Shown: in pieces, positions 47,916 to 58,608 of the stretch
Position numbering within the stretch: position 1 is the first letter of the stretch
How the letters are laid out: every line of letters starts with the position of its first letter
Assembly: GCA_964598745.1 (NCBI GenBank)
Contig: CAZRCV010000001.1
Location: 1-63,052, forward strand
Length of the DNA stretch: 63,052 nt
DNA from: an uncultured Methanosarcinales archaeon
Lineage (GTDB): Archaea > Nanobdellota > Nanobdellia > Woesearchaeales > GW2011-AR9
Direction of reading: 5' to 3'
Notes under the pieces: generated by a model
What the model saw: only the letters and a program-made list of their open reading frames with translations
Databases searched by the model: none
Told to the model about the DNA's origin: nothing
Position numbers and translations under genes: made by a program

Positions 47916-48143
47916 ATTAAGTCTAGTAGTGCTGGTTTTTAAGCCTATCGATCATCTTTCTTTAAAATTAATACCCTTGCTGTTAAGCTTACAGGAGCCA
48001 CTACAATGTAAGAAATCAGTTTTTTGATTTTTTCATCCCTGGAATATAGGTTGTTAAAATAAATTACTGCACGTTAAACTATTACTTTACTATTTTATAA
48101 TAATAAATAAAGTTTTTAAACCGTGTTACCCTTGATAAAAAAT

Positions 48144-48620
48144 ATGGGCTGGTTATTCAAAAAGAAAAAAGTAATTCCGAAGGTACCATTTCCTGAAACT
48201 ATTCCTAGCAGTTATGGAACTCTAAGGTTTCCAGAAAAGTTAAAGGAGCGGATAATTGAACCTGAAGACATTCAAAGTGCTGCCGGGCTAACGGAAGAAT
48301 CGTCTGAGCCTGCAGGCCAGGACTTAGATCTAGACGAAAATAACCGTAATATCGGCGCGCAAGAAGAACTGCCACCCTTGCCAGAAGCGCCAGCTGTTAT
48401 TACACGAAGCGAACCATTGTATGTTAAAAAAGATGTTTATCAAAGGATATTAGGAGAAATTGGAAACTTGAAGGACGATTTATTGGGGTTAAGTGAAACT
48501 AACGGAGTTCTAGAAAATTCAGAGTATAATGAAGAAAGTAACTTTGAAAAGTTGCGTAAAGCGATGAAAAATATCCATGATCGTTTACTGCAAGTGGACA
48601 AAGTATTATTCAAATCGTAA
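48144..48620 (+). CDS. Coiled-coil protein, paralogue 1 (N-terminal amphipathic basic segment, acidic/Pro linker)
   Basis: The ATG at 48144 (MGWLFKKKKV) is preferred over the GTG at 48123. The C-terminal module PLYVKKDVYQRILGEIGNLKDDL..LRKAMKNIHDRLLQVDKVL is shared with the next ORF. Confidence 0.45.
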   Translation: MGWLFKKKKVIPKVPFPETIPSSYGTLRFPEKLKERIIEPEDIQSAAGLTEESSEPAGQDLDLDENNRNIGAQEELPPLPEAPAVITRSEPLYVKKDVYQRILGEIGNLKDDLLGLSETNGVLENSEYNEESNFEKLRKAMKNIHDRLLQVDKVLFKS

Positions 48621-48631
48621 GGTGATTTCAT

Positions 48632-48859
48632 ATGGAAAGGATGCCGGTTTTTATAAAGGTGGATGATTATGAGGCTGTTCTTAGCTTGGTCAAAATGGTA
48701 CGCAAAAAATTAGATGAGGCTAAAGAAACTATCCTAAAAGTCAATGATCTAAAAAATGAAGAAGATCACCAATTAGAAACTTGGCAGAATTCCTTAGCTG
48801 AAATTGAGAAGAAAGTTGATTTCATAGATCATTCCCTTAGTGAGCCTGAAGAATTTTGA
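48632..48859 (+). CDS. Coiled-coil protein, paralogue 2 (75 aa, module only)
   Basis: AGGTGAT SD 5 nt upstream. PVFIKVDDYEAVLSLVKMVRKKL..WQNSLAEIEKKVDFIDHSL aligns with the C-terminus of ORF 48144..48620. Confidence 0.5.
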   Translation: MERMPVFIKVDDYEAVLSLVKMVRKKLDEAKETILKVNDLKNEEDHQLETWQNSLAEIEKKVDFIDHSLSEPEEF

Positions 48860-49362
48860 AAAGGAGTTCGAAATTGAGCCATAAAAAAACTAAGCATAAG
48901 CCTAGCAGCAGGAAGAGTGCTCCCAAAAATCTCCTTTCTGAACGAGCACCAGAGTATATGATTCAAATTAATGACCCTAAGATGCTGCGAAAAGACATCC
49001 TGGAATCGCTTCGCGAGGTTATTATTTTTATGCAAAGTTATGAAAAGTTCAGAAAAATACAAGAAGAGAAAATATCTTTGTTCTCTTCTTTGAAAACTAG
49101 TGTAAAGGAATTGAATTCTTTAATAGATAATAAGCTGCGAAGTTATCTTCCTAAAGGAAAGTTAAGGCCAGTAATGGACAACAGGCCAGAAGCAGAATCC
49201 AGTACTGAAATAGCCAAAGAGCAGGAAATCCCTCCAGCTAAGAAGGTAATTAAGCCAGAACCAAAGAAAGAGCCAGAAGAAGAGTACAAACCAAGAGATA
49301 CCTTAGAAGAATTAGAAACACAGCTCAGTGATATAGAAGCACAGTTGAAACGAATGGATTAA
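48856..49362 (+). CDS. Coiled-coil protein, paralogue 3 (basic N-terminus, Pro/Lys/Glu-rich tail)
   Basis: The TTG start overlaps the upstream stop (TTGA). An alternative TTG at 48874 is preceded by AAGGAG. The central helical module is a looser match to the two upstream ORFs. Confidence 0.45.
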   Translation: MKRSSKLSHKKTKHKPSSRKSAPKNLLSERAPEYMIQINDPKMLRKDILESLREVIIFMQSYEKFRKIQEEKISLFSSLKTSVKELNSLIDNKLRSYLPKGKLRPVMDNRPEAESSTEIAKEQEIPPAKKVIKPEPKKEPEEEYKPRDTLEELETQLSDIEAQLKRMD

Positions 49363-49409: not shown

Positions 49410-49565
49410 GCGGACGTGCCGGAGTGGTCAAACGGGATAGCTTGTTTGGCAATAATGCTAAACGAATCCAAACTCAAGTCCTAGAAGTGAGACTAACGAT
49501 CCTAACGTGCAAAGGAGTCATCTATTGGCTTAGTGCCTACGCAGGTTCGAACCCTGCCGTCCGCA
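49410..49565 (+). tRNA. tRNA-Leu(CAA), class II, with two predicted introns (about 30/31 and 37/38)
   Basis: Hand-folded. Acceptor GCGGACG/CGTCCGC plus A73. D-arm CCG-GAGTGGTCAAA-CGG with G13.A22. Long variable arm TGGCTTAGTGCCTAC. T-arm GCAGG-TTCGAAC-CCTGC. The only CU-NNN-R loop is CTCAAG (49473-49478). Model: stem ATAG[49441-49471]A / TCTAT, with a second intron at 49479-49519. Mature length 84 nt. Boundaries are uncertain. Confidence 0.6.
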
Positions 49566-49598
49566 TACCTTTTTAAATTAATAAACTTTCTTTCTATT

Positions 49599-50933
49599 AT
49601 GTCATTAGATGTCTGCGCCATTGGCGGCTTTTCTAAAACTGAAGGCAACTCTGTAGCGATTAAGGTTGATAATGAAGTAGTAATTCTAGACATGGGATTG
49701 AGTATGGCTGATTATGTTAAATTTCAAGAAGATTTTGAAGACATTAGCAATAGAAATTATAAAACACTGTTGAAAGTTAAGGCTGTGCCCGATTACAGTT
49801 TTATTGATGACTGGAAAGATTTGGTTATAGCCATTATTCCAAGCCACGGGCACTTAGATCACGTTGGAGCGATCCCTTTTGCTGCGCCGTTGTTTCCGAG
49901 GGTACCCATAATTTCTACGCCCTATTCCATTGAAGTGCTTAAAACTATTCTACAAGACGAACAAATTCAATTGCCTAACAAACTAATCACTGTGAACTTA
50001 AACGATAGTTATCAAATTTCTAGTAAAATTACTATCGAAATGGTTAACGTTACTCATTCCATTCCCCATACAGCAATCGTAATAATACATACCCCTTATG
50101 GAAAAATCATGTATGCCAATGATTTTAAGTTGGATGATACTCCCGTCTTGGGTAAAAAACCAAACTATAGCCGCATTAAGGAGCTGGGAGAAGAAGGGAT
50201 AAAATTATTGATTATGAATTGCCTGTATGCCCATGAAAAAAAGAAATGCCCTTCTGAATCCGTAGCCCGGCAGATGTTAAAGGAAGTTATGCTCAGCACA
50301 GAGTCGGATGGAAAAGCCATTGTTGTAACTACTTTTTCTTCACATATCGCTAGGCTAAAAAGTATTATTGAAATGGGCAAGAAACTTAACCGCGCTGTTG
50401 TCTTCTTGGGAAGATCGCTAGATAAATACGTTACTGCTGCTGAAAGATTAGGTTTAGTGCAGTTTAGCCAAGAAGTGGAAATAGAAAAATATAACGACAA
50501 AATAGTTAAAAAACTTAAACAAATCCAAAAGAATGGCCGAGAAAAATATGTCATTGTCTGCACTGGGCACCAAGGCGAGCCGCGAGCAATTTTATCGCGA
50601 ATAGCTAGAAAAGAATTGCCCTTTATTTTTCAGGACAACGATTTAGTTATTTTTAGTTGCACCGTGATACCCGTTGAGGCCAATCTTAAAAATAGAGAGC
50701 AACTGGAACGGTCATTAAGTAAATATAATGTAAGATTGTTCAAAGATGTACACGTTTCTGGCCATGGCGCATTAGAAGACCATCACGAGTTAATTGCCAT
50801 GGTCAAGCCGCAGCACATTATGCCCGTACACGCCGAACCAGCTAAAGCCAAAATGGTTCAAGAGTTAGCTACAAAAATGGGTTATCAAAATACGCACATT
50901 ATGGAAGACGGGAAAAGAATTTCTTTAGACTAA
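49599..50933 (+). CDS. rnj: Archaeal RNase J (beta-CASP metallo-beta-lactamase ribonuclease)
   Basis: HGHLDHVGAIP (HxHxDH), beta-CASP layout, C-terminal VHVSGHG and PVHAEP motifs. The ATG at 49599 was chosen because the track start at 49533 overlaps tRNA-Leu. Confidence 0.8.
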   Translation: MSLDVCAIGGFSKTEGNSVAIKVDNEVVILDMGLSMADYVKFQEDFEDISNRNYKTLLKVKAVPDYSFIDDWKDLVIAIIPSHGHLDHVGAIPFAAPLFPRVPIISTPYSIEVLKTILQDEQIQLPNKLITVNLNDSYQISSKITIEMVNVTHSIPHTAIVIIHTPYGKIMYANDFKLDDTPVLGKKPNYSRIKELGEEGIKLLIMNCLYAHEKKKCPSESVARQMLKEVMLSTESDGKAIVVTTFSSHIARLKSIIEMGKKLNRAVVFLGRSLDKYVTAAERLGLVQFSQEVEIEKYNDKIVKKLKQIQKNGREKYVIVCTGHQGEPRAILSRIARKELPFIFQDNDLVIFSCTVIPVEANLKNREQLERSLSKYNVRLFKDVHVSGHGALEDHHELIAMVKPQHIMPVHAEPAKAKMVQELATKMGYQNTHIMEDGKRISLD

Positions 50934-51078: not shown

Positions 51079-51825
51079 ATGAAGCTAGTGTTAACAGAGC
51101 CAAAATACTTCAAAGAAAGTATCTCTATTATTTCAGAGCTAGTTTCAGAAGCCAAATTTAAGATAAACAAGGATGGCTTAGAGCTGATTGCTATGGATCC
51201 TGCTAATGTGGCCTTGGTTGTCTTCAAGCTTTTAAGCAGTTCTTTTACGGAATATGGAGTTAAAGAACCGGAAGAGGTAGCGATCAACCTTAACAGCCTG
51301 AAACAAATTCTGCGAAGAGCTAAGGGAGATGATATCCTTAAGATTGAAACAACAGAAGACAGCAAGTTAAAGATTGAAATGAAAGGCTCGACTGTTAGAT
51401 CTTTCTCCCTTCCTACCTTAGAAACAGACAGCCACGAACAAAAAGTTCCGGACTTAAATTTTCCCATAACTATTCAAACAGAAGCAGAGATTTTAACAGA
51501 ATCAATCGAAGATGTTAGTGTAGTGGCTGAATCTGTTACCTTTTTGGCAGAGAAAACAAAGTTATTCATAAAGGCAGAAGGTGATTTATCTAAGGCCTTT
51601 ATTGAAATTAAAGCAGATGACTTGACTAGTATAAATACAGATTCTAGCGACAAATTTAAAGGAAAATATTCCTTAGAATATCTCAAAAAAATGATAGCTG
51701 GAGGCAAATTAAGCGATAAGGTAAGTTTATGTTTTAATACAGATTATCCCTTAAAATTAGAATATAAAGTCACTGATCGGTTTTTACTTAGTTTTATTTT
51801 AGCACCAAGGGTAGATAATGACTAA
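51079..51825 (+). CDS. pcn: DNA polymerase sliding clamp (PCNA)
   Basis: 248-aa two-domain protein (..GLELIAMDPANVALVVFKL.., ..KYSLEYLKKM..). GGGGT SD-like motif upstream. Confidence 0.9.
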   Translation: MKLVLTEPKYFKESISIISELVSEAKFKINKDGLELIAMDPANVALVVFKLLSSSFTEYGVKEPEEVAINLNSLKQILRRAKGDDILKIETTEDSKLKIEMKGSTVRSFSLPTLETDSHEQKVPDLNFPITIQTEAEILTESIEDVSVVAESVTFLAEKTKLFIKAEGDLSKAFIEIKADDLTSINTDSSDKFKGKYSLEYLKKMIAGGKLSDKVSLCFNTDYPLKLEYKVTDRFLLSFILAPRVDND

Positions 51826-58454: not shown

Positions 58455-58608
58455 TGGGGCTGCCCGGATTTGAACCGGGGTTCAGTGGTTTTTTTGTTTT
58501 CGGTCATCGCCGAGGGCTCACCCAAACCACTAGTGATAAATTACTCGAAGCGGGAGTGCAGTTCACTTAAATCAGCATCCCGCCATCACCAAGCTACACT
58601 ACAGCCCC
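58455..58608 (-). tRNA. tRNA-Pro(UGG) with two predicted introns (~50 nt in the D-loop, 31 nt at 37/38)
   Basis: Hand-folded on the minus strand. Acceptor GGGGCTG/CAGCCCC plus A73. D-arm GTGT-AGCTTGGT[58587-58538]A-TCAC. Anticodon stem AGTGG/CCACT with loop TTTGGG[58520-58490]A. T-arm CCCGG-TTCAAAT-CCGGG. Mature length 73 nt. Confidence 0.7.

Follow-up and report, generated by a model that had tools for sequence, protein, structure and literature searches.

Within the stretch of 63,052 nucleotides analysed here (the window), positions 49410-49565 of the forward strand very probably hold, as judged from the sequence, a functional three-exon tRNA-Leu(CAA) gene of a Woesearchaeota/Nanoarchaeota-type (DPANN) archaeon, the transcript of which would lose two protein-spliced introns (Table 1). 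The tRNA body can be read directly: acceptor stem GCGGACG/CGTCCGC, D-arm with GGTCAAA, variable arm of 15 nt (TGGCTTAGTGCCTAC) with a GGC/GCC stem, T-arm GCAGG-TTCGAAC-CCTGC and discriminator A73, the CCA end being unencoded. Between positions 26 and 44, it contains 89 nt (49437-49525), as compared to the 17 nt expected for an anticodon arm. These ends and this spacing, which had been described in an earlier note on this DNA, are all present in the sequence.

The covariance-model search suggested in the earlier note gives, with permissive filters, an end-to-end match of the Rfam tRNA model RF00005 to the locus (38.6 bits, E 8.8e-7; gathering score, 29); model positions 1-71 are covered, the anticodon arm alone being unaligned. 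When the two introns, of 72 nt in total, are excised, the resulting 84-nt product is called tRNA-Leu(CAA) by ARAGORN, which draws its cloverleaf. The features expected of a class II tRNA are found (7-bp acceptor stem, D-arm with G18-G19, TTCGAAC-type T-loop and full-length covariance match), together with those specific to Leu, i.e., a long variable arm, A73 and a spliced loop CUCAAGA with the anticodon CAA. A body of this type is shared by many related Leu(CAA) genes. The earlier note considered CUCAAG (49473-49478) as the only acceptable C-U-NNN-purine loop. Four such hexamers are found in the insert (starting at 49473, 49481, 49493 and 49502), and it is therefore not the sole one, but it is the sole one giving a Leu anticodon and is backed by the related genes. 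Across the whole 63-kb window, ARAGORN with default settings and the default Rfam gathering scan call no tRNA at all, because of their filters and of the introns, and not because the gene is absent. Neither default ARAGORN nor the permissive Rfam search finds a further Leu(CAA) gene elsewhere in the window.

Table 1. Parts of the tRNA-Leu(CAA) gene, flanking elements and two neighbouring genes in the window.
Feature	Position	Strand	Length and description
TATA-box-like element, TTTTATAAAA	49377..49386	+	centred ~28 nt upstream of the mature 5' end
exon 1	49410..49440	+	31 nt; positions 1-30: acceptor 5' strand, D-arm, G26, A27-G30
intron 1	49441..49471	+	31 nt; strict BHB; position 30/31, interrupting the 5' side of the anticodon stem
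exon 2	49472..49478	+	7-nt micro-exon ACUCAAG: A31, C32-U33-C34-A35-A36-G37; anticodon CAA
intron 2	49479..49519	+	41 nt; canonical position 37/38; relaxed motif
exon 3	49520..49565	+	46 nt; positions 38-73: A38, UCUAU, variable arm, T-arm, acceptor 3' strand, A73
T5 run (TTTTT)	49570..49574	+	just past the tRNA 3' end
RNase J	49599..50933		
PCNA	51079..51825		

Related Leu tRNA genes were collected by a pattern scan of Woesearchaeota, Pacearchaeota and Nanoarchaeota bins, with one genome per species, which gave 119 stretches with such genes and 110 distinct genes. In a MAFFT alignment of the window gene with nine relatives (alignment A1), the gaps in L064, which has a single intron, and in L107, which has none, coincide to the base with the two segments proposed as introns; an alignment with the tRNA-Leu(CAA) of relatives had been suggested as a check in the earlier note. 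Exon 1 agrees with the corresponding exon of the nine relatives in all of its 31 bases except two, and the ACTCAA of exon 2 is invariant in every aligned relative, the intronless gene included. Once both are spliced, the tRNA of the window and the Leu(CAA) tRNA of L064 differ by a single base. The proposal of a tRNA-Leu(CAA) with two introns is in agreement with the ARAGORN call on the spliced product, with the related genes and with the BHB geometry; its exon junctions are exact according to the alignment and to this geometry, and one of the introns separates G30 from A31 in the anticodon stem. The gene itself and its exon junctions can be considered as established.

The BHB motif consists of a 4-bp helix with a 3-nt bulge 3' of each strand, and cutting takes place after the second bulge nucleotide (PMC4090602). 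Such a motif is found around intron 1. Its central helix is formed by GGAU (49435-49438) and AUCC (49466-49469), with 4/4 pairs, and its bulges are AG↓C (49439-49441) and AA↓A (49470-49472), the arrow standing for the cut. The inner helix has 9 bp (49442-49450 with 49457-49465) plus one closing pair, i.e., 10 by the count of the scan, and the outer helix consists of one pair only, G24:C32, which brings the motif nearer to the HBh' form. The motif belongs to the minimum-free-energy structure predicted for the precursor, with pair probabilities of 0.87-0.99, and its location is the only one at which splicing restores the anticodon stem. When the precursor was shuffled, a comparable BHB (4/4 central pairs and an inner helix of at least 10 pairs) appeared anywhere in the sequence in only 2 out of 500 cases. 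The earlier note could not draw a clean BHB for intron 1; a clean one exists, exactly at the boundaries that it proposed. The three competing helices that it listed do exist as written, but GUUUGG/CCAAAC, at -4.0 kcal/mol compared to -13.3 kcal/mol for the BHB of intron 1, has a predicted probability of about zero. The weak and ambiguous motif is that of intron 2, which is the opposite of the impression given by the earlier note.

An intron at position 30/31 is present in 24 of the 110 distinct Leu tRNA genes (the window gene and 23 others), with CAA as well as UAG anticodons. In a BHB test anchored on this position, the central helix is paired at 4/4 positions in all 24 introns, in the forms GGAU/AUCC, GGAC/GUCC, GGCU/GGCU, GGGC/GCCC and GGCA/UGCC. 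Among the 18 distinct sequences, 100% of the cells are paired, with compensatory changes in two pairs, it being understood that the 3' boundary of each intron was picked with the motif in view, even though the downstream exon pattern fixes this boundary almost uniquely. This covariation score was not reached in any of 500 shuffles, and in slid controls only 12-54% of the cells are paired. The BHB of intron 1 and its covariation are thus established, as is the occurrence of the same layout among relatives. At the sequence level, intron 1 of the window is similar to the introns of L017, L020 and L122 (z>5), and it resembles those of L128 and L130.

In the canonical register, tRNA positions 32-35 would face intron nucleotides -6 to -3, and the 3' bulge would comprise nucleotides -2 and -1 together with position 38. 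Around intron 2, the central helix consists of the pairs C49473:G49517, U49474:A49516 and C49475:G49515, followed by an A49476·G49514 mismatch (A35·G). AG↓U (49477-49479) and UC↓A (49518-49520) form the bulges, and the anticodon stem AUAGA/UCUAU serves as outer helix. An inner helix is lacking (0 pairs), and the motif is of the relaxed hBH or bulge-helix-loop form rather than of the strict hBHBh' one. Three pairs and a mismatch at position 35 are the commonest pattern of 37/38 introns in the Leu genes of this clade; many 37/38 motifs of relatives are predicted no better, and the inner helix is also absent in L010, L034, L049 and L079. The GGAG element of intron 2 is found in L008, L054 and L126 as well. 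When the isolated arm without intron 1 is folded with ViennaRNA, a misregistered, continuous GACUC/GAGUC helix is obtained at -10.0 kcal/mol, as compared to -6.4 kcal/mol for the canonical motif, and the probability of the canonical anticodon stem is only 0.04, which counts against the explanation that we prefer.

Intron 2 also holds, at 49493-49506, a near-copy (CTAACGATCCTAAC) of 49458-49473 (CTAAACGAATCCAAAC), i.e., of the 3' part of intron 1 and its junction with exon 2. This near-copy constitutes an alternative 3' splice motif for the 5' site of intron 1: AUCC occupies 49499-49502, the outer helix has 3 bp, and cutting would take place after 49504. If it were used, the micro-exon bearing the anticodon would be skipped. 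This site is probably unused, because its inner helix has only 1 bp.

These features lead us to propose the following splicing route. In the primary transcript, intron 1 would fold as a strict BHB, using G25, G26, A27 and U28 from the D-stem/anticodon-stem region. EndA, the tRNA splicing endonuclease, would release intron 1 by cleaving 3' of G49440 and 3' of A49471, and the exons would be sealed by a ligase, expected to be of the RtcB type. The anticodon stem AUAGA/UCUAU would form only after intron 1 is lost, and would then become the outer helix of the second motif, a relaxed one, with CUC/GAG, an A·G mismatch, the UC↓A bulge and a 5' cut site placed in an open loop. Cuts after G49478 and after C49519 would finally release the 84-nt tRNA. 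In the first motif, A29, G30 and A31 are unpaired in bulges and G25-U28 belong to the central helix; in the second one, A27-A31 are paired with U39-U43. As the same nucleotides are needed in different states, the two full motifs are mutually exclusive. Intron 1 is probably removed before intron 2 according to this model, because the two motifs compete for shared nucleotides; the BHB of intron 1 dominates the ensemble predicted for the precursor, in which the pairs of the second motif have a probability of about zero. Five Leu genes have a 30/31 intron and no 37/38 intron, and the first splicing step is therefore independent of the second. A tblastn search with an approximate M. jannaschii EndA sequence found no match in the window, which is a part of the genome. 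The splicing order and the enzymes involved, like the expression of the locus, are predictions.

The relaxed state of intron 2 could alternatively reflect the decay of the locus, which would then be a degenerating or poorly spliced pseudogene, its intron 2 having lost the inner helix and the structured element of its relatives, with an inefficient maturation as a consequence. The absence of the inner helix and the predicted misfolding of the arm go in this direction, and so does the observation that L128 and L130, the closest relatives as far as intron 1 is concerned, carry a quite different, structured intron 2 of 53 nt. However, every exon position is intact, a single base separates the spliced product from that of L064, the BHB of intron 1 is perfect, and promoter-like and terminator-like signals flank the gene. 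Moreover, many other genes of this clade have weakly predicted canonical-intron motifs, several of them being likewise devoid of an inner helix, and the window contains no other Leu(CAA) gene. Taken together, these observations make a pseudogene improbable, and a functional tRNA-Leu(CAA) gene remains the reading that we prefer.

The boundaries of intron 2 and the identity of the tRNA can each be read in another way. Displaced by one base (cuts after 49477 and after 49520), intron 2 would be excised from a strict ACUC/GAGU motif, in which the central positions are all paired (4/4), the outer helix has 5 bp and the 3-nt bulges read AA↓G and CA↓U. The resulting tRNA would have either a 5-nt anticodon loop or position 33 occupied by C, and would be unable to decode; in addition, this register is impossible in the relatives whose intron ends with GAGCC↓A (L068 and L054), where only the canonical register works, and the alignment puts the junction at 37/38. 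A displaced cut is therefore very improbable. As for identity, the sole call made by ARAGORN in intron mode (-i) on the unspliced sequence is a tRNA-Glu(UUC) with a single intron of 74 nt (49444-49517). This reading was rejected, as it implies junctions devoid of a BHB, with 1/4 central pairs, in a class II body whose 15-nt variable arm and A73 fit Leu and not Glu, and as it needs G26 in the anticodon stem. All the relatives read CAA, by which the Glu reading is effectively refuted, and we give it a practically negligible probability. The three-exon tRNA-Leu(CAA) with introns at 30/31 and 37/38 is the one retained below.

On both sides of the gene, signals compatible with its transcription are found. 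The TATA-box-like element (Table 1) is, from its sequence and position, likely to be an archaeal promoter, and A/T-rich TATA-like elements lie at a similar upstream distance in L001, L008, L128, L129 and L130. The T5 run is likely to act as an archaeal transcription stop signal, and T-runs are also found behind the related Leu genes of L001 and L128.

The tRNA gene is followed by genes for RNase J, PCNA and gyrase A. The homologues of RNase J come from Woesearchaeota and Nanoarchaeota genome bins, and the G+C content of the window is 37%. For PCNA, an exact-protein look-up returned no identical record. [quoted passage not shown] Both the extension (49533-49598) and the reverse frame were rejected as spurious, because the RNase J homologues are of ~444 aa and match from the ATG at 49599. 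Directly upstream of the tRNA, three short open reading frames (165, 75 and 168 aa) occupy 48123-49362 on the forward strand. No Pfam hit is on record for their counterparts in relatives, in which their order and sizes are kept (365-1561 in L001 and 217-1492 in L008).

In L001 and L008, a Leu(CAA) gene is found at the matching position, after the same short open reading frames and upstream of RNase J and PCNA. The 5' arm of the anticodon is contiguous in both (ATGGA-CTCAA followed by G or A) and precedes a 37/38 intron. The gene of L001 (2120-2320) has the same acceptor stem as that of the window and a contiguous G ATGGA CTCAAG; its three introns interrupt the D-loop, position 37/38 and the variable arm. 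In the gene of L008 (1540-1671), ATGGA-CTCAAA is contiguous; besides its 37/38 intron, this gene has one of 13 nt that interrupts the T-loop (TTCGAA↓TTAATTACGAAAA↓T, at about position 59/60). The set of the window gene, 30/31 and 37/38, is thus unlike either of those found at the matching position. As read from these sequences, the comparison points to a rapid gain and loss of introns within the lineage, and such differing sets at one position are further evidence that introns turn over fast outside Thermoproteales.

The canonical Leu introns of relatives have a feature of their own, a K-turn resembling box C'/D', which is made of NUGA, a covarying hairpin, a 3-nt bulge and GA. It is present in Leu-CAA genes (L055, L100, L021, L064, L063, L068, L119, L128 and L130) and in Leu-UAG genes (L036, L034, L024, L066, L091, L075 and L109), with hairpin covariants such as GUGCUC/GAGUGC, GGUCU/AGAUC, GCAU/AUGC and GCC/GGC. 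In these Leu genes of relatives, the stretch upstream of the K-turn is antisense to the host tRNA, and the N+5 nucleotide, which faces the fifth position upstream of the box, is C34 in 12 of 15 CAA genes and C39 in 11 of 15 UAG genes. The complementarity of the guide at C34 or C39 is not above the best score obtained elsewhere in the tRNA, taken as background. According to this analysis, the K-turn of relatives may be an intron-borne methylation guide comparable to that of pre-tRNA-Trp, or else an L7Ae site that helps folding; the guide lead is drawn from the target position shared across genes and from a few covarying pairs judged by eye.

The canonical intron of archaeal pre-tRNA-Trp is known to hold a box C/D guide (Clouet d'Orval, 2001; Singh, 2004; PMC7994747), while in Pyrococcus, free-standing C/D sRNAs target C34 of tRNA-Leu(CAA) (PMC7994747). 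The relatives share with the former a C'/D'-like K-turn in canonical introns, here of Leu, with an adjacent antisense stretch, and N+5 nucleotides at C34 and C39, which are the positions methylated in tRNA-Trp. They differ from it by a single visible K-turn, by the absence of canonical terminal C and D boxes and by the lack of an Rfam C/D match: when the Rfam C/D families were searched with the intron of one relative, the only match was a 9-bit one to sR5 (E ~10). The lead concerns relatives only, as intron 2 of the window Leu gene is devoid of the motif. In this intron, only a marginal 3-bp hairpin candidate for a K-turn and no antisense stretch were found, with 2/8 pairs at C34. When it was compared to other introns, its best similarity was to that of L054 (z ~3, p ~0.02 before correction for 43 comparisons), which is too weak for it to be regarded as a decayed copy of the K-turn introns.

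One scenario, which we regard as possible but doubtful, would bring these observations together. The canonical Leu introns of the lineage would originally have had a single C'/D'-like K-turn and a guide for 2'-O-methylation, of C34 in CAA genes and of C39 in UAG genes, the BHB at 30/31 would force the removal of the 30/31 intron before that at 37/38, and the window gene would be a variant that has kept ordered splicing and lost the guide module. If this were true, C34 of the window tRNA would be either unmethylated or methylated under the guidance of an element encoded elsewhere.

The disruption of the Leu(CAA) gene is of a known archaeal kind, and this locus is an ordinary, but easily overlooked, instance of it. 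Multiple introns and non-canonical BHB introns have been described in the tRNA genes of Thermoproteales, which belong to the Crenarchaeota (Marck and Grosjean, 2003; Sugahara, 2007, 2008; PMC4033280, PMC4090602). The likeness lies in the short, protein-spliced non-canonical introns found beside a canonical 37/38 intron in one gene, in the coexistence of strict and relaxed BHB forms, and in intron sets that vary between close relatives. In contrast, the host is here a DPANN archaeon of the Woesearchaeota type, with 37% G+C, and not a hyperthermophilic crenarchaeon; the recurrence of the 30/31 site in Leu(CAA) and Leu(UAG) of many related genomes is stated for this group alone.

The host belongs to the same superphylum as the DPANN archaea already known for disrupted tRNA genes. 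Splicing endonucleases of broad specificity have been described in DPANN, namely the ε2 EndA of ARMAN-2 (Fujishima, 2011; PMC3239211) and an α4 EndA with an L3 loop (Kaneta, 2018; PMC5829648). The latter study, which included one Woesearchaeota and one Pacearchaeota genome, reported that the disruption of tRNA genes, multiple introns included, is higher in DPANN lineages with the L3-loop EndA, and it warned that incomplete tRNA sets in DPANN genomes point to disrupted genes that escape detection (PMC5829648). No gene-level description of a Leu gene with introns at 30/31 and 37/38 was found in these two papers (PMC3239211, PMC5829648) or in the other literature searched. What is known of how such introns work is left unchanged by this locus. 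Its consequence is rather for annotation: default ARAGORN and Rfam miss both Leu(CAA) and a second disrupted tRNA in one window, and since disrupted tRNAs are missed by default tools, genome bins of this group will seem to lack tRNA-Leu(CAA) and others.

This second disrupted tRNA is located at 58455-58608 on the reverse strand. It reaches 36.6 bits with the Rfam tRNA model under permissive filters, and can be identified with reasonable firmness as a tRNA-Pro(UGG) with a 37/38 intron. When the segment was spliced by brute force, many alternatives were obtained, among which only this intron and the Pro(UGG) identity are reasonably firm. The canonical intron has 31 nt (~58490-58520), and a D-loop intron of ~48 nt (~58541-58588) is placed with tentative boundaries. 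A K-turn is also present in the Pro intron, at 58504-58520 on the reverse strand (TGAGCCCTCGGCGATGA).

Finally, homologous introns of 66-77 nt are found in the T-loop of L009 and L109, both Leu-UAG, and of L055, a Leu-CAA, which belong to different genomes. They follow the pattern GCCAGCAATCT[AG]GGC[AG]AGT..GGCGGGC...GCCCACC...GGTTGC. Their sequences suggest a transposition of introns, as reported for Thermoproteales.
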